IMG/VR virus record: IMGVR_UViG_3300006738_000075
Reading direction: 5' to 3' (one strand)
Source: a virus
DNA: 25,504 nt
Each line of letters begins with the position of its first letter. The first letter of the stretch is position 1. Of the stretch, positions 1 to 14,006 are shown one piece after another. The notes beneath the pieces are model-generated. The model was not told the origin of the DNA and did no database searches. It saw only the letters and a list, made by a program, of their open reading frames with translations. Made by a program: the position numbers and the translations under genes.

Positions 1-61
1 CACACTTGATGTTGGCTGTATAGGGCCTCCCTTGAGAATGTGCTGTAAGAAGCTATAAATA

Positions 62-90
62 TGGGAGATGCGATTGTCTAGTATCTCCCA
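62..90 (+). terminator. Hairpin, possible weak terminator of an upstream gene
   Basis: TGGGAGATGC (62-71) pairs with GTATCTCCCA (81-90), 10 bp with one G.U; followed by an AT-rich stretch rather than a clean U-tract. Confidence 0.3.
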
Positions 91-102
91 CTATAATTAT
101 AT

Positions 103-211
103 TTGACACATACTGGTCACTCCCAATGTTCACAAGAGTCGTGCTCTAGAACTATTGCCAAAGCGTATTTAACCGGAACGGTTTTATGTACGTAGATGGA
201 GTATGTGTCAA
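103..211 (+). ncRNA. Long-stem structured RNA module (module 0)
   Basis: Perfect 12-bp inverted repeat TTGACACATACT (103-114) / AGTATGTGTCAA (200-211) enclosing smaller hairpins (AGAG-tcgtg-CTCT, AACCG-gaa-CGGTT); ends 20 nt before an AGGAGG. Confidence 0.5.
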
Positions 212-241
212 TAACCTTTTAATTAACAAAAGGAGGACGAA

Positions 242-367
242 ATGAAGAGAAGGAAAAGTGTACTGTATTCTATTTCTTCTATTATCTGGAGAATATATAA
301 GAAGGTACAAGCCGGGAAGTTTGAGGCGAGAAGAAAAGAGGATAAAGAGGCTGGTGTAGTAAGGTAA
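242..367 (+). CDS. Small basic hypothetical protein, 41 aa (MKRRKSVLYSISSIIWRIYKKVQAGKFEARRKEDKEAGVVR); below the ORF-track cutoff
   Basis: AGGAGG at 231-236, ATG at 242, TAA at 365-367. Explains the 223..423 minus-strand ORF as a shadow. Confidence 0.65.
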   Translation: MKRRKSVLYSISSIIWRIYKKVQAGKFEARRKEDKEAGVVR

Positions 368-394
368 CTCAAGGTCTCAATTTTTCTTAAAGAA

Positions 395-893
395 GTAGGC
401 AATGAATCTAGCGATGACGTCAACAGATTCGTCTCAGAGTGACGATTCCACGGTTGGCCACTAAGGATAAAACTCCATTGCCTACATATTTTGACATAAC
501 CTCAGGTTGTTGCCCAATAAGGCAAACAAGGAATGGTTAGCGGTACTAACCGTTTACACCTACTGAGATGTCATATATTTACTCTATCAGAGTTAGAGCT
601 TTTGACGAATGTTACTAGCTCACGGAGGGTAGATAGGGTATACTCTGATAGGGTATATTGAACATATGTAATTCTACAGGTGATGGATTGAAAGCCGTTA
701 GCTCATCTCTCGTATTCAAATCCTCAAATGCCTCCAATCTGTCACCTAAAATTAAACCGAGCAAAGACCTCAGATGGTTGAGTAAGGCTCATTAAAGGTA
801 CGTGGATAGCAACCACAGTTCGGTTTAAAGTATTAATAAAATGGTGGCAAATTTTGGCAGTTGCTTAAATGTTGCGACAGCAACAGCCATTTT
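395..893 (+). ncRNA. Tandem array of six sequence-unrelated stem-closed RNA modules
   Basis: Closing helices read by eye: 395-404/476-485 (10 bp); 492-497/568-573 plus 501-505/563-567; 580-593/642-655 (14 bp); 678-690/735-747 (13 bp); 752-760/820-828 (9 bp); 838-845/886-893 (8 bp). Short AU-rich linkers; no ORF of 60 aa or more. Confidence 0.62.
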
Positions 894-914
894 TAATTAT
901 AATCAATAACCAAG

Positions 915-1112
915 ATGGAGAATGATACTATGGCTATGATAAGTGTATTAGACTACATAGAAGGAGAAGAGTTTGCTAAGAAAATGAAAGACCTTTCTTA
1001 TCTTCTCAATAACGAGGAAGAACCAACAGTGTTACATATAGCAACAGCTAAGTTACATAAATGTACTAAACACTGTAAATACCAGAAGTTCAATAAAAAG
1101 GAGTGTAAATGA
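915..1112 (+). CDS. Hypothetical protein, 65 aa
   Basis: ORF in the sense of the block; no clear SD; no recognisable motif. Confidence 0.5.
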   Translation: MENDTMAMISVLDYIEGEEFAKKMKDLSYLLNNEEEPTVLHIATAKLHKCTKHCKYQKFNKKECK

Positions 1113-1162
1113 ACGCATAATGAAAAATAAAATGGCGAGTGAATAAAGGGTTGAAGACCGAT

Positions 1163-1254
1163 AATATTAGAGGACACAATACCTTGTAAGAGACATAAAA
1201 CTAAGTGAGATTGGTTGTAAAGCCTTTGTCTTTGGAATTGTGTCCTTTGATATT
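1163..1254 (+). promoter_or_regulatory. Intergenic long-stem RNA module (possible RNase III processing site)
   Basis: 18-bp helix 1163-1180 / 1237-1254 with two G.U pairs, inner AGACA/TGTCT pair; lies just upstream of the AAGGAG for ORF 1285. Confidence 0.58.
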
Positions 1255-1284
1255 TGAATGGAAGATTAAAAAAAGGAGATAGTT

Positions 1285-1509
1285 ATGACTACACCAATAT
1301 GGATAGCGATAATGTGGTCTACCTTGGCATTTTTAATTTTATGGATTGGTCTAATGATAGTAACAGCGAGCAGTAATTTTAATATGAAATATGCTCTATG
1401 GGTTGTTAAAAGACAAAGAAAAAAGGTCGAAACTGTTGCAAGGTTCAATAAAATGATTAATTCAGAGATTAAAGAGCTTGAAATAGAGCTAAGAAAGGAT
1501 ATACAATGA
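1285..1509 (+). CDS. Small membrane protein, 74 aa
   Basis: AAGGAG upstream; N-terminal hydrophobic helix (IWIAIMWSTLAFLILWIGLMIV) followed by a basic/coiled tail. Confidence 0.75.
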   Translation: MTTPIWIAIMWSTLAFLILWIGLMIVTASSNFNMKYALWVVKRQRKKVETVARFNKMINSEIKELEIELRKDIQ

Positions 1510-1937
1510 CAAAGTTCACAATCGTTATCACGACAATAATAGGACTTATCACATTGGATAAAATCCTCGATAAGTATGGTGATGTTTCTATTAAACAAAC
1601 AAGGAGGTACGTAATGGATAAATCATATATATTAACTAAAGTTATTTTATTATGGCTGGAACACTTTGCGTTAATACTCGGCGGAGCAGTAGGAGGATGG
1701 CTTTTATTTAAGAGAAAGGTAAAAAAGACAGGAAATACTCCTAATCAGTATATGACAAGGGAAGAAGTTAGATCTATTGTAAAAGCAGAAAATAGTTATT
1801 GGGAAGTAGCAGAAGTAAAAGAGATAACTAAAGAAAAACCAAAGGAATTAATATGTCCTGAATACGCTAAACCCTTAATAAATGCATTGGGAGATTATTT
1901 TCTATGGAGTAATTTCCGCACCAAGGTAAAGAGATAA
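1506..1937 (+). CDS. Hypothetical membrane protein, 143 aa (possible internal start at 1614)
   Basis: ATGA overlap with the upstream gene; two hydrophobic segments; in-frame AAGGAGGT (1601-1608) before ATG 1614. Confidence 0.7.
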   Translation: MTKFTIVITTIIGLITLDKILDKYGDVSIKQTRRYVMDKSYILTKVILLWLEHFALILGGAVGGWLLFKRKVKKTGNTPNQYMTREEVRSIVKAENSYWEVAEVKEITKEKPKELICPEYAKPLINALGDYFLWSNFRTKVKR

Positions 1938-1941
1938 GTAT

Positions 1942-2088
1942 ATGGATACTATAACCATAGGATTATCAGTATGTCTTGGATATTTAATGGGGTTTTTAGC
2001 TGGTTGTGTTTGGTGTGATTATAAGCAAGGTAAGAAGGAGGCTAAAAATGAATTCACCAAAAGACAAGAAAAAAGAACCGAAGTCTAA
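1942..2088 (+). CDS. Small single-TM protein, 48 aa (MDTITIGLSVCLGYLMGFLAGCVWCDYKQGKKEAKNEFTKRQEKRTEV); not in track
   Basis: Fills the gap after the 1937 stop; hydrophobic N-terminus plus basic tail typical of small phage membrane proteins. Confidence 0.6.
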   Translation: MDTITIGLSVCLGYLMGFLAGCVWCDYKQGKKEAKNEFTKRQEKRTEV

Positions 2089-2317
2089 TTTTGCAGTTAT
2101 AGGTATGAATGCCAAAAAAAGGATAGATTTTCAAATTGCATTTGGTGTTTATAATACTATGGAAGAGGCAAAGTTCATAAAAGACATAACACAAAAAAAC
2201 TGTCAGCTTAAAATAGTGATAGAATCAACATCAGCAAATGCAGAAGACACGAAAATAGCTTCTCATTTGAAACGTTTACGGGAAAAACAGAGTACCCGAA
2301 TCAAATACTCTGATTAA
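2048..2317 (+). CDS. Hypothetical basic protein, 89 aa (start moved from 2006 to 2048)
   Basis: AAGGAGG at 2035-2041 precedes ATG 2048. Confidence 0.7.
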   Translation: MNSPKDKKKEPKSNFAVIGMNAKKRIDFQIAFGVYNTMEEAKFIKDITQKNCQLKIVIESTSANAEDTKIASHLKRLREKQSTRIKYSD

Positions 2318-2341
2318 ATGCTATAGCAAAGGAGAATAAAA

Positions 2342-2551
2342 ATGCCTAACATAACGTTAGTTTCCTACCATAATGGTAGCGTACCTCTGGAAATGACCGG
2401 AGATACACCAGCAGGAATCGCAGAGAGTTTAAATATCTCTATTAATGAAGTTGAGATATCGGTAGATGGGAAGTCTGTCCCAGCTAATCATAAACTTAGA
2501 GATGATGACCTGGTTGGAATGCAGAAAGCAAAGGTTAAATCAGGTAAGTAA
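2342..2551 (+). CDS. Ubiquitin-like (ThiS/MoaD-type beta-grasp) protein, 69 aa, ending ...KVKSGK
   Basis: Size and pattern (EISVDGKSV...LRDDDLVGM) match beta-grasp Ubls; near-terminal Gly; AAGGAG SD; first gene of an E2-JAB-E1 cluster. Confidence 0.82.
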   Translation: MPNITLVSYHNGSVPLEMTGDTPAGIAESLNISINEVEISVDGKSVPANHKLRDDDLVGMQKAKVKSGK

Positions 2552-2571
2552 TCTGATTTATTCGATGTCTT

Positions 2572-2663
2572 GGATAAGTGATCTTTGGGGAGTATCATCT
2601 ATTGGTACCTGATGAGACGATGTGAAAAAGCGAACGGCGCTCTTGCCTGAGGGTCACTTATCT
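2572..2663 (+). promoter_or_regulatory. Structured intergenic RNA element between Ubl and E2
   Basis: 16-bp helix 2572-2587 / 2648-2663 (9 consecutive Watson-Crick pairs, 5 G.U) with inner hairpins; ends 7 nt before the AGGAGG (2671-2676) of the E2 gene. Confidence 0.6.
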
Positions 2664-2681
2664 TATACCTAGGAGGACAAA

Positions 2682-3995
2682 ATGAAATACTCAGAGTTAA
2701 AACAAAAAGTACTAAAAAGAAATGCATTAATTAAGGTTATTAAGAATATAGTCCCAGTATTAAATGTATCAACAACTATAGTAAAGAAACAAGCTACCCT
2801 ATTAATAAACAAGTTTGATTGGGTAGAAGTAGGAAGAGACTATAAAAGTTTCTATGTCAAATTTGATAATATTAAACTACGTGGTAGTAGAGTATATCAT
2901 TTATGGGACATATATGTTTGTTTCTCTAAGGGAAGTCAAACCTATCCAAAAATAACGTACTATAATATAGCCCCTCATTCCAATGAAGAGGAATTATTAT
3001 GCTATGGAATGGAATACGATTCTATAGCTGATATGGTAAATTATGAATTGCTTATTCCCGCAAGACATCCACATATTTCAACTGGTACTGGTGATGCGTG
3101 TCTTGGTGATTTTGAAAAACCAATATATAATTGTTTAGGTATTTATAATTATGCTGCTGCATTATTAACAATAAAACAATTCCTATTATCTTGGAATGTG
3201 AATAGTCCATATTGGAATGTAAATGATTGTTATAATTACTTTTTTAGGGCAGAACGAGGATATAAATATCTAACATATGCTGAACTAGTATATATATATA
3301 TTAGTGAATGGGGAAGAAAAGCAAATATCGTGGCAGATATATGTGAATCTGTCAAAAGAAAAACTGGCAAATTTGATGAATCTTGGATTGATAAAGTAAA
3401 TAGATTTCAAGTTTGTCAACAGGATAGATTAGATAGATTTCTTGCTGATCTTGTATCTGATGTGGTAATAGATAAACATCCATTCCTTGAAATGTGGCAT
3501 AGAATAGTTAAATTAAAAGGAACTGACTGGACTTGGGGTAGTAATGCTCAAACATCTATAGCTAATTGTGAGAAATTAGACCTTGTTTATAGTGATTTTA
3601 GAACTGTAATTAATTCATTTAGAACTAAAGCTTCACATACTTTCTCAAAATTTGATATAATATTTTATTATTATAATCATCCACTTGGGAATCAATGGAG
3701 ACGTAGTCACTGGGATATAATCATGAAGAAAAGAATGGAACAGATTCTTAATCAGACAATAAATGAGGTAGCATTAACTGGATCATCTGTGCCAGCAGCA
3801 ACAAAAAGAAGATTGCTTAGAAGTCGTGGAATTGAAGCGTTATTTCAAGAAGGAATTAATTTGGATAACGTTGATAAATTACTATACGATTCTGGGATTA
3901 TAGCATATAGAATGGCAATAAAGAACAGCAAAGAGGCAATAAGGAGGCTCAAAAATGAAGTTGACGATTTTAAAGCCAGTTTTGACCAAACTTAA
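2682..3995 (+). CDS. Prokaryotic E2/UBC-like ubiquitin-conjugating protein with long N- and C-terminal extensions, 437 aa
   Basis: RHPHISTGTGDACLG: HPH (129-131) and Cys140 mirror the E2 HPN...C-L motif; followed by E2-like helices; located between Ubl and JAB. Confidence 0.78.
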   Translation: MKYSELKQKVLKRNALIKVIKNIVPVLNVSTTIVKKQATLLINKFDWVEVGRDYKSFYVKFDNIKLRGSRVYHLWDIYVCFSKGSQTYPKITYYNIAPHSNEEELLCYGMEYDSIADMVNYELLIPARHPHISTGTGDACLGDFEKPIYNCLGIYNYAAALLTIKQFLLSWNVNSPYWNVNDCYNYFFRAERGYKYLTYAELVYIYISEWGRKANIVADICESVKRKTGKFDESWIDKVNRFQVCQQDRLDRFLADLVSDVVIDKHPFLEMWHRIVKLKGTDWTWGSNAQTSIANCEKLDLVYSDFRTVINSFRTKASHTFSKFDIIFYYYNHPLGNQWRRSHWDIIMKKRMEQILNQTINEVALTGSSVPAATKRRLLRSRGIEALFQEGINLDNVDKLLYDSGIIAYRMAIKNSKEAIRRLKNEVDDFKASFDQT

Positions 3996-4812
3996 TTATT
4001 TCTTAGAGACATTTCCTAAGAAAGAATGGAGTGGGCCAGGCTGGTTTGCTTGTAAGCAAGAAAAGAATGAATTTCCAGAGGAATTTGTTTTATTGGATTT
4101 TCATCCTCTTGACTTAGGTACTCATAGTTCGACAGAATGGGATTCTAAAGCTATGCTCTCAGTACTTAAGGAGAAGATAAAAATTAATCCTAAATTAAAG
4201 AAATGTTATTTAGGGTTAGTTCACAGTCATCATACTATGGGTGCATTCTTTAGTGATACTGATGATGATACTTTAGAAAAAATGGCACCAGATATTGGAT
4301 TTTATCCAAGTCTTGTGGTTGCAACTGCTAAGGAAAAGTATGCATTTGCAGTGTCATATAAAGATCAGTATCAAATTCCTCATTTGGTAGAATCTGATGA
4401 TGATTGTGAGATATTACCATTAATAAAACCTAAGAAAGACTGGGCGGATATCGCTAAGACACTCAAAAAGACTGCAAAAGCAACAAATCATTGGACAAGG
4501 AAAAATGGACAAGGTATAATCAATTATGGACATGGCGACTATGGTCAAAGCTATGGATATAAACATTTTCCTATTGAAAAAAAGTCTGCCAAAGTGTCAG
4601 TTAATGATATTAAGTCTAGTGAGGAAAGCTATTATCCTGTACTAAGCAACGAAGAAGAAGAAATGGTATATAAATGCTTTGATGCATGGGAAAATAGATT
4701 AATGTCTTGGGATCAAGTCACGCTTAAACTAGAAAAGGTTGGTATAAGAGACCCTCTTGAATTCTTTGGAATGACTTATGATACAAAGGAATATCAATCG
4801 TACAGTAAATAA
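3955..4812 (+). CDS. JAB/MPN+ metallopeptidase (deubiquitinase-like), 285 aa
   Basis: Glu24 (KEWSG) plus H90-S-H92-x7-S100-x2-D103 (VHSHHTMGAFFSDTD), the complete JAMM zinc motif; AAGGAGG SD. Confidence 0.9.
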   Translation: MKLTILKPVLTKLNYFLETFPKKEWSGPGWFACKQEKNEFPEEFVLLDFHPLDLGTHSSTEWDSKAMLSVLKEKIKINPKLKKCYLGLVHSHHTMGAFFSDTDDDTLEKMAPDIGFYPSLVVATAKEKYAFAVSYKDQYQIPHLVESDDDCEILPLIKPKKDWADIAKTLKKTAKATNHWTRKNGQGIINYGHGDYGQSYGYKHFPIEKKSAKVSVNDIKSSEESYYPVLSNEEEEMVYKCFDAWENRLMSWDQVTLKLEKVGIRDPLEFFGMTYDTKEYQSYSK

Positions 4813-4822
4813 GGAGGTTAAT

Positions 4823-5485
4823 ATGGCGCTAGAAAATAGATTCTTACGAAATAAGGATTTAATTCCACAAAACAAACTTGATGAAATAATGGTAATTGGT
4901 TTAGGGGGCATTGGCAGTAATGTCATTGCCCTCTTGTCCATTATGGGATGGGATACTATAATAGGATATGATGAAGATAAGCTTGAAGAACATAACTTAT
5001 CTGGTTGTTTATATCCTATAAATATGTTAGATGTTCCCAAGGCAAAGGCAGCTAGAGATTTGGCATTAGCATTTGGTGCGAAAGATGCTGATATGTCCGA
5101 AATAAATTGGACATATGATTTAGATGTTATGCTTCCCAAAGTAATCTTAGCCACCGATAATATGGAAGTTAGAAGAGATGCTTATGATGAATGGGTAAAA
5201 TTACCTAATCGTCAGCTTTTGATTGATTTACGTATGGATGCACTTGCAATGGAGATTATTACAACAACAAAAGATAATGATTTCTTTAACGAAAGTTGGG
5301 TACCAAGTGCAGAAATAGAGGATGCCCCCTGTACTATGAAACATACAATATTTACAACAAGTATTGTATCTGGTTTAGGGATCAGTCAGTTGTTTAATTC
5401 CCTTGTGAAACTACCATACTATGCGTATATTTGGGTTGGATTAATACCACTTTCAATAAAGAAAACTCATCTAATAAAGGGATAA
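4823..5485 (+). CDS. E1-like ThiF/MoeB-family activating enzyme, 220 aa (start moved from 4778 to 4823)
   Basis: N-terminal RFLRN, GLGGIG nucleotide-binding loop, DEDKLEEHNL, PKAKAA, ATDNMEVR, IDLRM and a candidate thioester Cys170 (APCTM); AAGGAGG before ATG 4823. Lacks CxxC zinc motifs and the Arg of the usual SNLxRQ. Confidence 0.9.
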   Translation: MALENRFLRNKDLIPQNKLDEIMVIGLGGIGSNVIALLSIMGWDTIIGYDEDKLEEHNLSGCLYPINMLDVPKAKAARDLALAFGAKDADMSEINWTYDLDVMLPKVILATDNMEVRRDAYDEWVKLPNRQLLIDLRMDALAMEIITTTKDNDFFNESWVPSAEIEDAPCTMKHTIFTTSIVSGLGISQLFNSLVKLPYYAYIWVGLIPLSIKKTHLIKG

Positions 5486-5488
5486 ATA

Positions 5489-6349
5489 ATGATAAAGCCT
5501 CAGAAAATCTCCACTAATTGGAGTGAAGTACCTCATGGTGTGACTTATTACTTTATAGGTCAACCTAAAACAGGCAAAACAACAACGGCAAGTCGTTGGA
5601 GCGAAAAAGGAACCGAGGGTGTGTTGTTAATTGATACAGACCTCGGTTCTGATTACGTTGAAGGAGCCAATGTTGTAACTGCTACTAGCTTAAATATTCC
5701 TTACAGGGAATTAAAGTTAGATGGTAAATCCGTCATAAAAGATGGTAAAACACAAATGGAAATTATTCCACCGGAAGAACGAGGATATTATTATCGTTCA
5801 GGTGAGAATCGTGGTAAACCAATGCCTGTTTATTCTATGGTAGAAATATATCAATGGTTAAAACAAAATTTCCACAAACAATCTGAGTTTAATACCATAG
5901 TTATTGATACCATTGATGTAATAAATAAATGGATTGAAGAAGAAGTCGTCAAAGAACTCGATATTACTGGTATGGGTGAAGGTTCTTGGGGGGCTGATTG
6001 GTTTAAAGCAAGAAAGAGAAATGTTGATCTCATAAAGAAACTTCAATTATTCATAAAGAAAAATGGATATGATCTTGTTTTAATAAGTCATTCAAAATCT
6101 TCAACATCAACAGATGGTAAAATTCAGTTGTTGCCAGAATTACCAAGAGGTTTAGCCTATGCATTATCAGCAAAAGCAGATGTTATAGGTTATACAACGG
6201 CAAATAAGGAGGACGGAAAATACTATATAAGTTTCCAGTCCTACGATGAACGTGCAGTAGGAAGTAGGTTAAAGCCACTTGCACAAAAAACTTTATTGTT
6301 TGATTATGATGCAATAAAGAACGAAATCCTAAATTACAAAGAGGAGTAA
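5489..6349 (+). CDS. Sak4-like (AAA_24) phage ssDNA-annealing ATPase, 286 aa
   Basis: Walker A GQPKTGKTT, LLIDTD, Walker B IVIDTID, LISHSK, ADVIGY; typical position upstream of an SSB. Confidence 0.82.
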   Translation: MIKPQKISTNWSEVPHGVTYYFIGQPKTGKTTTASRWSEKGTEGVLLIDTDLGSDYVEGANVVTATSLNIPYRELKLDGKSVIKDGKTQMEIIPPEERGYYYRSGENRGKPMPVYSMVEIYQWLKQNFHKQSEFNTIVIDTIDVINKWIEEEVVKELDITGMGEGSWGADWFKARKRNVDLIKKLQLFIKKNGYDLVLISHSKSSTSTDGKIQLLPELPRGLAYALSAKADVIGYTTANKEDGKYYISFQSYDERAVGSRLKPLAQKTLLFDYDAIKNEILNYKEE

Positions 6350-6352
6350 ATA

Positions 6353-6973
6353 ATGAGATTCAGACCTGAAACAGAATCAAATGGAAGTTGGACGGGCTTT
6401 CAAAATGTACAAATAACGGACTTCTCAGATAGAAGTAAAGATACAAGAGATGATGGTGAAATAAAATTTCCTTGGGCAGATGTTTATTTAGAAGTTATGC
6501 TCGCTGGAAATAGTAAGTATCCAGTTAGATTACAAGTAGCTGGGTCTTATGATAAAGATAGTGACGGTAGGATTAGAACCTGTTCATTATTAAATAAGAT
6601 ATATTACTTATTTGATGCCATTGGTTTTGGCGGCGGGCCAAATACTATAGGTGAATGGGAAACTAAGACAGGAGATAAGATAGAAAATATCCAGACATTC
6701 CTGAATAATAACTATGTTGCCGACATATCAGATGATACAAAGCCATATTATGTCTATGTTTATAGGACATTACAAAAAGATAAAAAAACTGGCGAAGAGA
6801 AGGAATGGACAAGAGTATGTCCAAAGATTGTTATTGATACGCCAGAGAACAGAAAGGAATTAGAAAACTATGTAACCTTTATGAAAAGTAGAGGACATAT
6901 AAAAGAAGTAGAACCTAATAGCTCAGGTAATTCAGCAACCGTGAGTACAGGCTCTTCTGAAGATACTTTTTAA
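6353..6973 (+). CDS. Probable single-stranded DNA-binding protein, 206 aa
   Basis: Lies between Sak4-like and primase-helicase genes; beta-rich; flexible C-terminal tail ending in acidic residues plus Phe (GSSEDTF). Context-based call. Confidence 0.6.
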   Translation: MRFRPETESNGSWTGFQNVQITDFSDRSKDTRDDGEIKFPWADVYLEVMLAGNSKYPVRLQVAGSYDKDSDGRIRTCSLLNKIYYLFDAIGFGGGPNTIGEWETKTGDKIENIQTFLNNNYVADISDDTKPYYVYVYRTLQKDKKTGEEKEWTRVCPKIVIDTPENRKELENYVTFMKSRGHIKEVEPNSSGNSATVSTGSSEDTF

Positions 6974-8841
6974 TGTATTTAGAAGTTGCAATAGAAAGCC
7001 CTCGTAAAAGAGGGCTTCTTGTTGCACTAGACAGTCTTCCACATATCCTAGTAACAGAAGGTAAGAAAAAGGCAGTATATCGTAGTACTTATTTATATTA
7101 CGATGATGCCATTGATTACCAAAAGGCAAATGGAACTTTACGTGATTTTCAGGGAATGCGTGGGCTTGATCAGATTATCATAGATATAGACAAGAAAGAT
7201 AATTCTGATAAGTACACTCAAGAAAAGGCACAAAGTATCATTTTTGACCTTTATGAACTAGGTGTGACGGATGGTAATATCCAACCCTACTTTAGCGGGA
7301 CAGGTTATCATATTGCTATTTCCAATAACCTATTTAATATAGAGCCTTCTAAGAATACTCCTTATATTTTAAGAGAGACAATGAGGAAGATATTTGATGA
7401 TATTGACATTTCTATTTATAATAGGACTGGAATATATCGAATGGAACATACCTTAAATTCAAAACGAGGTTATTATAAGATACCATTAAGTATAAGAGAA
7501 TTATTAAATCTTAGTCCAGAACAAATAAAAAACTTAGCAGAAAGACAAAGATTTGAGTTCAATTATAAAGATATTTCCGATGTTGATGATAAGGAAAAAC
7601 TCAAAGGTTATGTAGTAAGAAATGTTCCTCAAGTTAGGGAACTTCAAACAACCTTTGAACCAAAGAATGTGGTTACTTGTTTACAAGCAATATATAGAGA
7701 AGGACCACAAGAGGGAAATAGAAATCACGCAATATTAAGATTTGCTTCCCATTATCTTCGACACGGTATTCCATCTGAGGCTGCGAAAGCAGCTATATTG
7801 AATTGGAATAATGATAGTCTTGACGAACAAGGAGTCCTTCAAAAGATAGAAGACACTTATAACCGTGGTTATCGTTATGGTTGTAATGACTTTTTATTAA
7901 AGGAATATTGTAGTCCAAGATGCGTATATTATAAGAATAAAGATTACCTCGTTGAAATAAAGAATAGTGATGATATGCAAAAAGCATTGGAAGAACGAGT
8001 AAGTGCAAACTTTGATGGAAGAGTAATCTGCTTAGACGAATTATTTGGTCTTCAAGGCAAAGATATAACAATATATCCTGGTGAACTTGTGACAATATTT
8101 GGGCCGACAGGTACTAATAAAACTACATTGGCACAAAATATAGCACTAGGATACGATGCCTATAATGACCTAATTAGAAGTGAATTACAAATTCCTACAC
8201 TCTATTTATCATTAGAACTTACAGATTGGTATAGTCATAAAAGACATCTTCAAATAGTTAGTGGTATGAGTAAAAAGGAAATTGAGGAAAATCTAAAGGA
8301 AATGTATCAATTCCATAGAGAGAATATTTCTCATATTGCCATTAATACTGTAAGTCCAACGATAAAGAAAATTCGGGAAATGGTACAAAATGTACAACCC
8401 AGATGTGTAATTGTCGACTATATAGACCTTGTAGAGCCTCCTGGACACATACGAGGAGAATATGAGTCTATAAGATATATAAGTCATGCACTTTCAAATC
8501 TTGCAATTAATATGGATATTATTATTATCCAATTGTCTCAAACTAGTAGAGAATATTCAAGGAAGGAAGTACTTGATCTTTATGCTGGAAAGGGATCAGG
8601 GGCTATTGAAAATGCCTCAAGAAAGGTAATTGGTATCAGTGGAAATGCTCAAAGAAAAGATCGTAAGGTAGAAATGTTTAAGAATACTGATGGCGAACTC
8701 TTTGAAGTAGATTTAACATGGACACCAAGTTTTAGATTAATACGTCAAGATCGTGTTAATTTAGGAGAATCAGTTACTACAAATAGAACAATACTTACAT
8801 TGGAGCAGAAAGATGACAATAAGACAACAAACGTCGTATAA
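6973..8841 (+). CDS. Bifunctional primase-helicase (AEP/PrimPol-like N-terminus, PriCT-like domain, DnaB/SF4 helicase C-terminus), 622 aa
   Basis: IIIDIDKK (DxD), YFSGTGYHI, GNRNHAILRFA, Cys cluster (GCND...YCSPRC), GELVTIFGPTGTNKT, LSLEL, VIVDYIDL, QLSQ, KGSGAIEN. Confidence 0.88.
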   Translation: MYLEVAIESPRKRGLLVALDSLPHILVTEGKKKAVYRSTYLYYDDAIDYQKANGTLRDFQGMRGLDQIIIDIDKKDNSDKYTQEKAQSIIFDLYELGVTDGNIQPYFSGTGYHIAISNNLFNIEPSKNTPYILRETMRKIFDDIDISIYNRTGIYRMEHTLNSKRGYYKIPLSIRELLNLSPEQIKNLAERQRFEFNYKDISDVDDKEKLKGYVVRNVPQVRELQTTFEPKNVVTCLQAIYREGPQEGNRNHAILRFASHYLRHGIPSEAAKAAILNWNNDSLDEQGVLQKIEDTYNRGYRYGCNDFLLKEYCSPRCVYYKNKDYLVEIKNSDDMQKALEERVSANFDGRVICLDELFGLQGKDITIYPGELVTIFGPTGTNKTTLAQNIALGYDAYNDLIRSELQIPTLYLSLELTDWYSHKRHLQIVSGMSKKEIEENLKEMYQFHRENISHIAINTVSPTIKKIREMVQNVQPRCVIVDYIDLVEPPGHIRGEYESIRYISHALSNLAINMDIIIIQLSQTSREYSRKEVLDLYAGKGSGAIENASRKVIGISGNAQRKDRKVEMFKNTDGELFEVDLTWTPSFRLIRQDRVNLGESVTTNRTILTLEQKDDNKTTNVV

Positions 8842-9430
8842 TAAAATGACATCTAGTGAGCTTATTGGCGAGCATATTGACCTAATAAATGAAAAGATGA
8901 TGCTAGAAAATGAGTTACTGCACAGGGATCAATTAAGTTCATCAGGTTTAGAAGAGACTGAATCTGAATATAAACATGTTGTTAATGAACTTACTATCTT
9001 ACAGCAGACATTGAAAAAGAAAATGGATAATATTGATAAGTTTATGGTCAATCTAAATAAAAGGAAACATCTCATAGTTGGCGAAATAGAGGCACAGACT
9101 TTTGAGATGACACGCCTAAAGAAACGTAAGAATGCCATAAGTAGTACTCTTCAATATTTTAATGAACATCTTCTACCATCTATTATACATGAGATAGGTG
9201 ATAAGAATGGAGTATTTGAAACCAATACCGCTAGATATAAACTATACAACTCGTATGGACCAGTAAAGATAGATGAACAGTCACTTGGGGATGATTATAA
9301 ACAAGTAAAGATGGTAGATTCTATCAACAAAACAAAGGCTAGAAAAGACGCCATTTACGCCCACAAAGCTGGTACACAATTTCCAGATGGGATATCTATA
9401 TATCAAGTTGAAAAAGTTAGAAGATCATAA
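8813..9430 (+). CDS. Gp157/Gam-like coiled-coil protein, 205 aa
   Basis: Long coiled coil (KMDNIDKF...EIEAQTFEMTRLKKRK) followed by FETNTARY...VKIDE...INKT...AGTQFPDG, matching the siphovirus Gp157 pattern; in a recombination module. Confidence 0.7.
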   Translation: MTIRQQTSYNKMTSSELIGEHIDLINEKMMLENELLHRDQLSSSGLEETESEYKHVVNELTILQQTLKKKMDNIDKFMVNLNKRKHLIVGEIEAQTFEMTRLKKRKNAISSTLQYFNEHLLPSIIHEIGDKNGVFETNTARYKLYNSYGPVKIDEQSLGDDYKQVKMVDSINKTKARKDAIYAHKAGTQFPDGISIYQVEKVRRS

Positions 9431-9431
9431 T

Positions 9432-9635
9432 ATGTTTAAAATATATATTTGGTCTGGTGGCTTTCAAATGTTTTTATTAAGATATTTTCATTTGGCAATG
9501 TTGTTTGATGTGGATGAACGTGGAGAATATTTCCAGGTAACATTAGGTATCTGGAAACCAACAATAACAATACAAATAGGAACAATTAACTATGACAAAA
9601 AAAACTCAAGGAGAACGAATCTTAAAAATACTTGA
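9432..9635 (+). CDS. Hypothetical protein (likely start 9432, MFKIYIWSGG)
   Basis: ATG one base after the upstream TAA; the track ORF 9387..9635 overlaps the upstream gene. Confidence 0.55.
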   Translation: MFKIYIWSGGFQMFLLRYFHLAMLFDVDERGEYFQVTLGIWKPTITIQIGTINYDKKNSRRTNLKNT

Positions 9636-9789
9636 AAATGGTGACACATTAACTCCTATGTCAGCATCTACACAAGGTTTGGGGATAAGGTTGGCTGCTC
9701 GCATATTTGATTTACGTCAAAAGGGTCATTCAATTGAGACACTTAGAGACAATACTTTAGGTGTAGCAAGATATAGGATGGTAAGATGA
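9592..9789 (+). CDS. Small winged helix-turn-helix protein (HTH_39-like), 65 aa
   Basis: TQGERILKILENGDTLTPMSA...RLAARIFDLRQKGHSIET matches the common phage TQ..RIL..L..G.SIT..EA...RLAARI.DLR..G..I pattern. Confidence 0.78.
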   Translation: MTKKTQGERILKILENGDTLTPMSASTQGLGIRLAARIFDLRQKGHSIETLRDNTLGVARYRMVR

Positions 9790-9923
9790 AATACATGAAC
9801 CCATTCTATAGAAGTAATCGTAAGTTTTCACGAATATGGAGAACACTTAAACAGCTCCGTCATAGAATACAATTACTCGAAGAGGAGTTTTCTACATTAC
9901 GTTCAAGAACTCCTAAGAAGTAA
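9786..9923 (+). CDS. Small basic protein, 45 aa (MKYMNPFYRSNRKFSRIWRTLKQLRHRIQLLEEEFSTLRSRTPKK); not in track
   Basis: ATGA overlap with the HTH stop; heptad-like helix; TAA 9921-9923. Confidence 0.55.
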   Translation: MKYMNPFYRSNRKFSRIWRTLKQLRHRIQLLEEEFSTLRSRTPKK

Positions 9924-9929
9924 TATAAC

Positions 9930-10232
9930 TAAGAAACAGATAAAAAATCCAGTGGCGAGGGAAGGGAATTCTCAAAAGAGTATATGTGACCATGATCGCG
10001 AAAATCTTCGCCCGAAAGGCACAATACTTTAGAGACTAAGAGCTAGATAGTAACAATACTTGATGGTTATACGATAGCATGTAATTCCAGTTTTCGATAC
10101 TCAGTTGTCCAAAGGGGTGGCTGACTAAAGTTAAGGGAAGTAGTTTAAGTACCTAAACTTATCCATGCTGGTTATGTTGGGTTATCTAATCATCAGACAT
10201 TTTCCCTCTAGTAAGATCGCCTCTGTTTCTTA
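9930..10232 (+). ncRNA. Candidate ~300-nt multi-branched non-coding RNA
   Basis: Long-range closure TAAGAAACAGA (9930-9940) / TCTGTTTCTTA (10222-10232), GGCGA/TCGCC and GAGGGAA/TTCCCTC; several internal hairpins; no ORF of substantial length. Confidence 0.6.
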
Positions 10233-10237
10233 TATAA

Positions 10238-10480
10238 ATGAATAAAATCCTAAAAAAGGTATCAGGCATACATAGACGTGGATTCTTATATGAAGAAAAG
10301 GAGAAGGAAATGGAAAAATGTACGAATATGTTAGACATAATCCCAGATGATGTCGATGTAACTCCTCATAAATATAAATATGCTGGATCGTATGATATTA
10401 ATATTGATGGGATAGGTGGTGACTATTGGGAATGTTCTGAATGTGGAAATATAGAGTTTGATGAACCAGATAATATATAA
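10238..10480 (+). CDS. Hypothetical protein with a C-terminal CxxC (WECSECG); possible true start 10310
   Basis: AAGGAG at 10298-10303 lies 6 nt before the in-frame ATG 10310. Confidence 0.6.
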   Translation: MNKILKKVSGIHRRGFLYEEKEKEMEKCTNMLDIIPDDVDVTPHKYKYAGSYDINIDGIGGDYWECSECGNIEFDEPDNI

Positions 10481-10895
10481 AAAGGTACTTTATCCAATAC
10501 ATAAGCAATTTTGGAAAAGAGCTAAGAAGAAACTTTCTCGTAAAATAACAGCACTGTACTCTAATCTTAAAAAAAGAAGTATGGCAATGGATATTAAATT
10601 TGATATAACAAGAAAAGAACTAGAGAAAATGTTTCTTGACAACTATGGGAAACAATGTGTATATTGCAGTAATATATTATCAATAAAGACAATTGCTTGC
10701 GATCACATCATTCCCATGGTAAAGGGTGGAGAAAGCACGGCAACCAACCTTAGGCTTGTATGTAAAACTTGCAATACACGAAAAGGCCCACTGGATGAAG
10801 AGGACTTCAAAAAGATTATAAAATGGATAAGTAGACAATCAGAAGAGGTAGAGGCATATCTCTTACGTAAACTAGCAAAGGGAGGAAAGTACTAA
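10458..10895 (+). CDS. HNH endonuclease (McrA-like, zinc-binding), ~145 aa
   Basis: CVYC...DHIIPMVKGG...NLRLVCKTCNTRKG; basic N-terminal helix; ATG at 10461. Confidence 0.9.
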   Translation: MMNQIIYKKVLYPIHKQFWKRAKKKLSRKITALYSNLKKRSMAMDIKFDITRKELEKMFLDNYGKQCVYCSNILSIKTIACDHIIPMVKGGESTATNLRLVCKTCNTRKGPLDEEDFKKIIKWISRQSEEVEAYLLRKLAKGGKY

Positions 10896-10896
10896 T

Positions 10897-11292
10897 ATGA
10901 AATTCTATAAAAGAGGATCTTCAGACAATAATTGGCTGGAAAGTAAATACGCAAGAAAGAGCCAAGCAGAACGAGATACTATAGTTTGGTACTTTACTAA
11001 TCATCCCATATTCGGTAGCACTGAGTGGTTTGATAGTGACAAGGTATTGCATACACGAAATAGGGTAAATGGGAATAGGTTATATAGCAACCCTACGAAA
11101 GCAATAGGTCGAAATGTAGAAAGAGTAGGAAGAGGCAGAAAGAATCGTAACAGTGTTCCATTTAGATGCAGCGATTGCAAAAAAGCTTGGCAAAAAGTGG
11201 ATGAAACTTATAACAAGGGTATTAGTTACTTAGCAAAAAGTATATGGAAAAATATACCATTAGACGATAGGAGGTGTCCAAATTGTGAATAG
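10897..11292 (+). CDS. Hypothetical zinc-ribbon protein, 131 aa
   Basis: CSDC...CPNC pair; GGGAGG SD. Confidence 0.7.
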   Translation: MKFYKRGSSDNNWLESKYARKSQAERDTIVWYFTNHPIFGSTEWFDSDKVLHTRNRVNGNRLYSNPTKAIGRNVERVGRGRKNRNSVPFRCSDCKKAWQKVDETYNKGISYLAKSIWKNIPLDDRRCPNCE

Positions 11293-11838: not shown

Positions 11839-11923
11839 AGGTTAAAACTAAAGTGCCTAAAACAATAAACGCTCAGGTTAAGGTAAGAAGTAGTTGGCTG
11901 GTGGGTACTACCGAGTTTTAACC
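11839..11923 (+). promoter_or_regulatory. Intergenic stem module upstream of an RBS
   Basis: AGGTTAAA (11839-11846) / TTTAACCT (11916-11923), inner GTAGT/ACTAC; AGGAG follows at 11930. Confidence 0.45.
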
Positions 11924-11941
11924 TAAATTTAGGAGAAAATA

Positions 11942-12154: not shown

Positions 12155-12174
12155 ATCCTCCATCTATACGGCAA

Positions 12175-12214
12175 GTAGGGCTCCCATGAAAATGGGAGTT
12201 CTACTATTTTTTTT
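12175..12214 (+). terminator. Rho-independent terminator of the + strand block
   Basis: 13-bp stem GTAGGGCTCCCAT / ATGGGAGTTCTAC, GAAA tetraloop, followed by TATTTTTTTT. Confidence 0.9.
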
Positions 12215-12395
12215 CACTCTCTACAAAATATCTGCGATTATTCGACCTATTTACTATTAACAGAATGACCGTCAATAGCCCTAAAACGCCGTTTACGGGA
12301 CTTTCTTGGTCAACCCTGTACATATACTAGTATAAATCATTTTAAAGCGAATTTTGGAAAATTTACCCCAAAATTGAAACTGGTTTTTAAGAAAC

Positions 12396-12770: not shown

Positions 12771-14006
12771 TTAGATTTTTAATAGCGCCTTCCTCCCAAG
12801 AAATTTAGCACCCTTGATACCGAGCTTTAACGCCAACCTACGTGCCTCTTTTAAATCATTTGCTTTAAGTGCTGCAAGAAAGCGTGACCTTAATGATTTC
12901 CTTGCATAAGTCCTAACTTTCTTCATCTTACTAGCATTAGTACTCCTGGCTACATTAAAATGCTGGTTTCTCTGAACATGTGAACTTTTTAGCACATCAT
13001 ATTTATCGCTAACTAAGATGTCATGTAAAAATCCACCACGAGGACCTTTCCACAACTTAATATTTACATTAGTTCCACCGACTAAATAATGAGGTTTATA
13101 GGCTGAGCTATAATTTAACACAAGCTCGCCATTCTTGCCGACACTAAAATTCTTCATAAATTTACTAACTTCTTCTTCTCTAGATGCAACATTGGCATGC
13201 AATCTATTTACGCCTCTAAGACGAGTTCCCATTTGAACTATTCTATTTTCAGCTTGCCCTCTTACTGCATCCAGGTCATGTAAATCAACACCACTTCTCA
13301 ATACTTTATCAGCCATCTTAAACATGTGATCTTTTCTGGCGGCCTTTATAAGCTGACTCTTGTCACCCCCAACATTTAATATGTTACTAACAGATGCCTT
13401 TGCATCACCACTAAGACCCCATTTATTTATTGCACCCTCATGTCCCTTAAAAATAGTCTTTACATCTGTTCTTGTTGGCCTAGAAAGACCCTTCTCAACC
13501 ATTAGAGAGCCACTATACTTGTTACCCATTGTATATCTTACGAGCTGATTTTTTAATATCTCATGTCTACCAAGCCTCTTGTATTTACCAAGACCAAACC
13601 TTTTTGGCTTTTCTCCCTTTAACTCTGCAAATTCAGCAGCTTGTTCTATTTTAATTTGGTTCGCAGCATGATTTAGCTCGGCTGGAGTAGTATGACCCCA
13701 GTCTCTCATAATTTTCTCAGTATATTTTATTTTAGCAGAGTCAGACATACCTTTAGGAAACTCATCTGGATTGTTCTTAATAAATGTCTGAACTTCATTC
13801 CTCCAGTTGTTCAACATGTGACCCAAAAATAATCTACCTTTCTTTGCACCCTTGCTATAAAAATCTTCTATTAAAGTACTTCTCCTCTCTGGAAGAGCAC
13901 TTAACATCCTTGTTATGGGAGTATGTTTTAGAGCATGGGTCCCACCAACTACTGCCCCATAAACACCTGCAGCACCCAATAAACCACGCTCTACATCTCT
14001 GTCCAT
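12771..14006 (-). CDS. Basic putative internal virion protein, 411 aa
   Basis: TAATG overlap with the vRNAP stop; N-terminal Gly/Ala hydrophobic segment; very Lys/Arg-rich. Function inferred from context. Confidence 0.6.
   Translation of the reverse strand: MDRDVERGLLGAAGVYGAVVGGTHALKHTPITRMLSALPERRSTLIEDFYSKGAKKGRLFLGHMLNNWRNEVQTFIKNNPDEFPKGMSDSAKIKYTEKIMRDWGHTTPAELNHAANQIKIEQAAEFAELKGEKPKRFGLGKYKRLGRHEILKNQLVRYTMGNKYSGSLMVEKGLSRPTRTDVKTIFKGHEGAINKWGLSGDAKASVSNILNVGGDKSQLIKAARKDHMFKMADKVLRSGVDLHDLDAVRGQAENRIVQMGTRLRGVNRLHANVASREEEVSKFMKNFSVGKNGELVLNYSSAYKPHYLVGGTNVNIKLWKGPRGGFLHDILVSDKYDVLKSSHVQRNQHFNVARSTNASKMKKVRTYARKSLRSRFLAALKANDLKEARRLALKLGIKGAKFLGRKALLKI

Follow-up and report, generated by a model that had tools for sequence, protein, structure and literature searches.

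The window, i.e. the whole stretch of 25,504 nucleotides of viral DNA analysed here, carries on its + strand an operon of co-directional genes that includes Sak4-like, primase-helicase and Gp157/Gam-like genes, a HTH_39 winged-helix gene and an endonuclease VII-like HNH gene (Table 1). The Gp157-like protein (8813-9430, + strand) also matches the PHROG entry 'Mu Gam-like end protection' with E = 5e-6. A gene-free element lies between the HTH_39 gene and the HNH gene. The initial annotation placed it at the end of a replication module, and it is actually inside a replication/recombination block, with the HNH gene and further + strand genes following it. A putative intrinsic terminator near 12170-12215 closes the + strand operon, and a convergent - strand block comes next. 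The hairpin at 12170-12215 (+) is strong and resembles intrinsic terminators in its 14-bp stem, its GAAA-type loop and the U run behind it.

Two small open reading frames flank the element. The upstream one, o45, is very basic, with 13 Arg/Lys and 3 Glu among its 45 residues, and its ATG overlaps the stop codon of the HTH_39 gene (ATGA), to which it is translationally coupled. Our protein search with o45 gave one near-identical cluster and no PHROG or Pfam family, and its look-alikes in the atlas were only sub-threshold. The downstream one, o80, starts so close to the element that the 3' strand of the closing helix P1 covers positions -16 to -6 relative to ATG 10238. An in-frame ATG of o80 at 10310 has a GGAG SD, and this GGAG (10300) lies 68 nt past the element.

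The element itself does not appear to code for protein. We found no open reading frame of at least 40 aa on either strand of 9930-10232, except for a 50-aa minus-strand frame (10186-10338) that overlaps the 3' end and is lost in the relatives. Two smaller internal frames, one of 15 aa starting with ATG and one of 27 aa starting with GTG, were rejected as coding because a 19-nt deletion in one allelic type (type C, see below) destroys both.

Table 1. Features of the window and of the element, with the predicted helices numbered P1 to P10.
Feature	Position	Strand	Remarks
Sister module	103..211	+	closed by a perfect helix of 12 bp, z = -3.8; part of the long left-hand region without genes
Sister module, intergenic	1163..1254	+	closing helix of ~18 bp, z = -5.2; AGGAG SD next
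Sister module, intergenic	2572..2663	+	GGAGG SD and ATG next
Sak4-like gene	5489-6349	+	
Primase-helicase	6973-8841	+	
Gp157/Gam-like gene	8813-9430	+	
82-aa ORF	between Gp157/Gam-like gene and HTH_39	+	
HTH_39 winged-helix gene	9592..9789	+	constant upstream neighbour
o45, very basic Arg/Lys-rich ORF	9786..9923	+	45 aa; ends 6 nt before P1
Whole element	9930..10232	+	303 nt in the window; ORF-free, 14 unique variants at the same locus
P1, 5' strand	9930..9940	+	partner 10222-10232; perfect over 11 bp, without change in 14/14 variants
Bulge	9941..9953	+	13 nt, A-rich, ends UCCAGU; one A/G polymorphism; CCAGU repeats the P7 5' strand
P2 (GGCGA) and P3 (GGA, GGGAA), 5' strands	9954..9968	+	partners 10202-10209 and 10217-10221; invariant
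P4, hairpin of variable length	9970..10035	+	conserved base UCUC/GAGA plus AGAGUAU/AUACUUU
Junction block	10036..10060	+	25 nt, invariant; can form mini-hairpins CUA/UAG and AGUA/UACU
3' domain (P5-P10)	10061..10195	+	135 nt, three-way junction; basis: folds and pair counts
P5	10061-69/10187-95	+	part of 3' domain
P6	10075-81/10173-79	+	conserved pairing
P7	10087-91/10167-71	+	conserved pairing
P8	10096-99/10160-63	+	part of 3' domain
P9, hairpin	10102-10/10115-23	+	part of 3' domain
P10, hairpin	10129-36/10152-59	+	conserved pairing
P3, P2 and P1, 3' strands	10196..10232	+	7-nt internal loop AGUAAGA; identical in all variants
o80, small ORF	10238..10480	+	80 aa; ATG 10238 is 5 nt after P1, no SD
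Endonuclease VII-like HNH gene	10458-10895	+	
Sister module, intergenic	11839..11924	+	11-bp closing helix

The two ends of the gene-free gap pair with each other, as had been proposed from the letters of the window, through a perfect 11-bp helix of TAAGAAACAGA (9930-9940) and TCTGTTTCTTA (10222-10232). The further closing helices hold in part: GGCGA/TCGCC (9954-58/10217-21) and a helix of the GGGAA/TTCCC type stand, and the full GAGGGAA/TTCCCTC helix does not stand alongside GGCGA because the two overlap by 2 nt and are not both full-length. Six of the nine longest non-palindromic inverted repeats of the 25.5-kb window lie in + strand non-coding gaps. Long inverted repeats are concentrated in non-coding DNA, so that chance does not account for the closing helix. 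The + strand of the element folds with a minimum free energy (MFE) of -79 kcal/mol and z = -2.3, with none of 100 shuffled sequences being equally stable; the z-score of the - strand is -2.0.

We collected 14 distinct variants of the element from marine metagenome contigs, including those of Tara Oceans, all at the same locus. They fall into the main types A, B and C, and several copies lie on IMG/VR contigs. The lengths are 302-305 nt for type A and its variants, 284 nt for type C and 382 nt for type B. Type B was reached through a protein search with o80, type C through a scan of metagenome contigs with a two-block DNA pattern, and further variants through exact look-ups of HTH_39 variants. 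The upstream neighbours are constant in all variants, i.e. HTH_39 and then o45. There are also mosaic alleles, e.g. L102, in which the P4 hairpin is of type A and the 3' domain of type C. We found no cultured relative of the phage.

The element is single-copy and confined to this one syntenic locus across the viral, metagenome and genome collections that we scanned with several blocks. Exact-pattern scans of viral contigs with four blocks returned type A only; the metagenome pattern scan gave one true new variant (type C, L095) plus three chance matches in coding DNA, and the scan of the genome collection gave chance matches only. Searching 72 loci of relatives, whose HTH or helicase proteins are 35-66% identical, with nhmmer returned near-identical copies only. 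We rejected a 34-nt similarity in L122 as chance, as it lies inside a 556-aa ORF, and a match to the 5' anchor in L071 as a coincidence within unrelated sequence. A covariance model of the 3' domain found no new members among 79 loci and the Cellulophaga phage phi14:2; against bases 1-9000 of phi14:2 with the filters off, its best match had E = 0.14.

The predicted fold is shared by the allelic types. The consensus structure, computed using RNAalifold on types A, B and C, consists of P1-P3, P4, two mini-hairpins and the 3' domain P5-P10. The ends of the element are joined by a basal stack of P1 (11 bp), P2 (5 bp) and P3 (8 bp), 24 bp in all, whose continuity is broken by two bulges of 13 nt and 1 nt and by a 1x7 loop, and the interior is branched into P4, the 25-nt junction block and the P5-P10 domain. 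P4 keeps its base, and its tip is 19 nt shorter in type C, ~80 nt longer in type B and altered in two type A variants. At position 9978 in P4 the window has a G where all the other copies have an A, giving G.U instead of A-U. Types A, B and D independently fold into the common architecture of the 3' domain, and type C adopts it at 1 kcal/mol above its own MFE.

The smaller internal pairings listed in the initial annotation are all contained in the sequence, namely GCGAA/TTCGC, CAGTTGTCC/GGGTGGCTG, AGTTTA/TAAACT and AGCATG/CATGCT, and three of them did not survive the comparison of types. The AGCATG/CATGCT helix is broken in type B and the AGTTTA/TAAACT helix in types B and C, so neither is conserved, and the GCGAA/TTCGC hairpin is a dispensable tip, which type C has lost by deletion and type B has exchanged for another sequence. 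Several motifs picked out by eye were also rejected: a K-turn in the P2/P3 loop mismatches the consensus, and GNRA tetraloop-receptor pairs as well as a 7-bp alternative pairing ACUUUAG/CUAAAGU are either unconserved or expected by chance.

The core of the element is more strongly constrained than the adjacent protein-coding genes. The DNA identity of the flanking genes between types A and B is 84-94%, and their four-fold synonymous sites differ by 16.8% between A and B and by 3.7% between A and C. The conserved blocks of the element, i.e. the strands of P1-P3, the junction 10024-10069 and P7 with its adjoining strands, cover 186 nt and differ at 7 positions (3.8%) between A and B and at one position between A and C. 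Compared with the four-fold rate for A-B this gives a binomial P = 3e-8, which is descriptive only because the blocks were chosen after seeing the data. A core more constrained than its coding flanks would therefore exclude a neutral spacer or a decayed gene. The variable parts, about 100-110 nt in the interior of P4, P6, P9 and the interior of P10, differ by 43% (A-B) and 22% (A-C), and all the indels are located in these variable hairpin-tip parts. The tips thus diverge beyond the four-fold sites, with 22% versus 3.7% for A-C and 43% versus 16.8% for A-B. We did not adopt diversifying selection on the tips; recombination with older alleles explains their divergence equally well, since mosaic alleles occur and the downstream gene switches in or next to the element.

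Homologues of the element exist, with a conserved core, helices that are kept through substitutions and indels confined to the hairpin tips. In P6 the pairs are UAGCAUG/UAUGUUG in type A and UAACGCA/UGUGUUA in type B, so that all 7 pairs are kept with 6 of them varying, including one double change from U-A to C-G. P5 has a double change from UA to GU and a change from GU to GC, and P9 reads CAGUUGUCC/GGGUGGCUG in type A and CAGCAC/GUGCUG in type B; the changes in P5 and P9 are compensatory or one-sided. Conserved homologues and supporting pair changes are therefore both found, whose absence was named beforehand as a finding that would speak against a structured RNA.

The statistical support from covariation is modest, as only about three independent lineages are available. 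In the model-aligned 3' domain 95.6% of the cells are paired and the covariation is 0.128, compared with 0.098 +/- 0.009 in shuffles; 2 of 500 shuffles reach 0.128, and slid controls give 0.042 or less. In the full MAFFT alignment, which misaligns P9 and P4, 94.8% of the cells are paired and the covariation is 0.055 versus 0.053 in shuffles. Among the 95 pairs 65 never vary, and the changes that are kept mostly affect one side of a pair, as transitions within G.U-rich helices, where they cost little to retain. P4 contains A.C mismatches arising from G9986A in type C and G9988A in two type A variants. Since P1-P3 are invariant, covariation neither probes their pairing nor fixes the register of P2 and P3.

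The folding models favour the + strand, i.e. the sense strand of the operon, as the RNA strand. Reading the - strand would turn about 10 G.U pairs of the conserved helices into A.C, and the MFE of the + strand is below that of the - strand in all 14 variants. The consensus folding energies of the two strands are nearly equal (-51.1 vs -50.1). Overall, the element is genuine, structured and strongly constrained, and it is probably an RNA.

None of the described RNA families matches the element, as had been proposed, and it was found only in one lineage of uncultured marine phages. Rfam 15 gave zero matches over the whole window at gathering scores and a single match, a chance snoRNA, at E<=10 over 9700-10500, and the type B and type C variants had zero Rfam matches. 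ARAGORN found no tRNA or tmRNA, RNase P RNA was not found with the Rfam models, and a blastn search of 50,697 phage records with the element came back empty. No match to the group I intron model RF00028 was found, and the element sits between complete ORFs. The two ends of group I introns do not pair together, unlike those of the element, which pair mutually. We found nothing pointing to a ribozyme or a degenerate ribozyme, which had been suggested as one possible identity. As for the other suggestion, a free-standing gene for a large phage RNA, no promoter-like or terminator-like site was found flanking the element, which may instead be an intercistronic domain of the operon mRNA.

The element is not the only structure of its kind in the window. 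Smaller helix-closed modules occupy other intergenic gaps on the + strand (Table 1), and a ribosome-binding site of the AGGAG type follows 8-19 nt behind the modules at 1163, 2572 and 11839. In the closing helix of the 11839 module, type B has a compensatory double change that turns G-C into A-U, and one A-U pair has become G.U. Further inverted repeats (389/491 and 577/658) lie in the 915-nt non-coding left region. This region (1-915) has no convincing ORFs and contains helix-closed units at 103-211, 389-491, 577-658 and about 838-893. The element at 9930-10232 is the largest and the sole richly branched member of the set. Helix-closed modules are present in nearly every + strand gap of this abundant uncultured marine phage, and RNA structure in the early transcript may therefore organise its gene expression.

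Our preferred reading, to which we give a probability of roughly 0.6, is that the element is a lineage-specific structured RNA domain of ~300 nt (284-382), lying on the + strand within the transcript of the early/replication operon. It would be part of the operon mRNA, where the basal duplex, like those of the smaller sister modules, could punctuate the polycistronic message as a site of processing or stability. The conserved branched core would be a binding platform, with a host factor, the HTH_39 protein or o45, the Arg-rich peptide inherited together with the element, as candidate partners, and the platform may set how the genes of the variable cassette, which starts 4 nt past P1, are expressed. 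The case for o45 or HTH_39 as an RNA partner is circumstantial and consists of adjacency and charge, to which translational coupling and co-inheritance are added for o45.

The processing part of the reading has a model in phage T7, where the RNase III sites R0.3, R0.5, R1, R1.1 and R1.3 lie between early genes. Like them, the element and its sister modules are helix-closed and intercistronic in a co-directional operon, shortly upstream of the next ribosome-binding site, with several per genome that are mutually unrelated in sequence. The position of the element is also of the T7 type, i.e. 6 nt after the o45 stop and 5 nt before ATG 10238. Each T7 site is a plain, irregular hairpin some 50-60 nt in length, whereas the element is 284-382 nt long and branched, with at least 8 helices and an invariant junction core, and an 11-bp helix by itself is short for RNase III.

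The regulatory part can be compared with riboswitches and other cis-regulatory leaders, with which the element shares a closing P1, a conserved multi-helix junction, variable peripheral stems and a place directly upstream of a gene. Unlike riboswitches, it has no Rfam riboswitch match, and we identified neither a terminator nor a clear SD-sequestering helix. [quoted passage not shown] As in Aca-type regulation, a HTH gene is nearby and a swappable small-gene cassette lies downstream (PMC13551039), but the element is far larger than the Aca-bound hairpins and the HTH gene is upstream rather than downstream. We speculate that the element might even be a new kind of RNP or switch, in which a scaffold of P1-P3 plus the junction is bound by o45, carries swappable specificity tips, and gates or protects a hypervariable accessory, possibly anti-defence, cassette; this stronger version is rather unlikely. 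If it were true, the element would be the largest of ~10 structured RNA modules in the early transcripts of a phage that may carry a virion RNA polymerase.

Such a polymerase is hinted at by a 3170-aa orphan ORF on the - strand (14006-23518), which has an ADFDGD motif at residue 1525. The DFDxD motif is the metal-site motif of two-barrel RNA polymerases. We found no match of this ORF in Pfam, PHROG, the sequences of solved structures (PDB) or by tblastn of phages. The marine Cellulophaga phage phi14:2, which has a virion RNA polymerase, transcribes long early intergenic regions above most genes, and these RNAs, of unknown function, are still abundant late in infection (doi 10.1101/2020.03.07.982082). 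Both phages are marine and have long ORF-free stretches among rightward early genes, and the 3170-aa ORF shares the DFDxD motif with the phi14:2 polymerase. Unlike in phi14:2, the genes of the window phage have clear AGGAG sites, and there is no sequence or model similarity between the two, so the parallel to the element is one of analogy only.

An alternative hypothesis, which we regard as improbable, is that the element acts as DNA, e.g. as a replication origin, a target of recombination or of an endonuclease, or an array of protein-binding sites, with the conserved blocks being the binding sites. The setting is suggestive, as the neighbours are primase-helicase, Sak4, Gam-like, HTH and endonuclease VII-like genes, the blocks are near-perfectly conserved, gene cassettes have been exchanged by recombination at the 3' edge, mosaic alleles occur, and the consensus folding energies of the two strands hardly differ. 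However, we found neither iterons nor an AT-rich stretch for unwinding, the only repeats were two-copy matches of the kind expected by chance, and the G+C content of the element (0.38-0.39) is slightly above that of the flanks (0.27-0.35). Binding sites in DNA would also not call for pairing that is kept through substitutions with imperfections that are G.U on the + strand, for hairpins that survive indels, or for comparable helix-closed modules in front of many unrelated genes.

Equally doubtful in our view is a free-standing, stable non-coding RNA, either excised or separately transcribed, that acts in trans and whose variable loops give specificity as an antisense, a decoy or an RNP scaffold. 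Paired ends are typical of stable RNAs, and an ultraconserved scaffold with fast-changing tips and shuffled alleles would suit such a role, for which the abundant early intergenic transcripts of phi14:2 would be a precedent (doi 10.1101/2020.03.07.982082). This precedent comes without homology to phi14:2, though, and the excess divergence of the tips follows equally from recombination with older alleles. The lack of flanking promoter- or terminator-like sites speaks against a free-standing RNA, and so does the number of complementary ten-mers elsewhere in the window, which is no higher than expected by chance (13 vs 12.0).

By far the least probable is a functionless miniature inverted-repeat mobile element (MITE), or the remnant of a decayed gene or insertion: the 11-bp perfect terminal inverted repeats with TATAA on both sides (the left one offset by one base) are MITE-like, and the closest relative without the element has HTH_39 directly before the HNH gene, but the element is single-copy at one locus with no copies found at unrelated sites, other matches of the block scans being chance ones in coding DNA, it is never missing alone, the conservation of its core exceeds that of the coding flanks, and no reading frame is conserved, the type C deletion being 19 nt.

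That relative, L040, whose helicase is 66% identical, bears on the RNA-domain reading as well. In it the HTH_39 gene is followed directly by the HNH gene, and compared with it, o45, the element and o80 have been inserted together. Across the loci o45 and the element are jointly present or jointly absent. It is rare to find a large structured RNA of unknown function, and several of these have proved unusual. The element should be a tractable one, with a defined predicted fold, a core more conserved than its neighbours, allelic variants as built-in mutants and a fixed candidate partner gene in o45. Fremin et al. 2023 predicted 10,006 candidate structured RNAs in IMG/VR viral contigs (PMC10690425), and the element is the same kind of object from the same data source.

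Variable small-gene cassettes begin at a junction formed by the 3' edge of the element. The sequences downstream diverge exactly 4 nt after P1: types A and B continue with o80, and the type C contigs have different small genes there (93, 95, 101 or 153 aa).

We made several further observations on this cassette, which occupies 10233-10457 between the element and the HNH gene and consists of o80 alone in types A and B. In type C contigs (L097:2123-2720) the element is followed by ORFs of 93 and 89 aa. In L079:1-1700 the same two ORFs lie ahead of an 88-aa homologue of o80 and of the HNH gene, and the cassette additionally has a 2OG-Fe(II) oxygenase gene. A homologue of o80 (P0005, 90% identical over 71% of the 56-aa query) also occurs in another phage lineage (L088:1-553, also L089 and L090), preceded by a different ORF-free stretch of ~520 nt that is dissimilar to the element and to the other loci compared. 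On these short contigs, the stretch may represent a second case of a non-coding element that precedes a homologue of o80.

Small differences were also seen among close copies. In L003 and L061, which represent one metagenomic strain, o80 has a 3-nt indel in an AT-rich repeat (window 10370-10400) that keeps the frame and gives 81 instead of 80 aa. When 9592-10950 was compared with the near-identical L001, L005 and L006, the window had G/C and the copy A/T at 9690, 9978, 10814, 10880 and 10913; these differences are one-directional transitions, with the sole exception of one T/C in L005.
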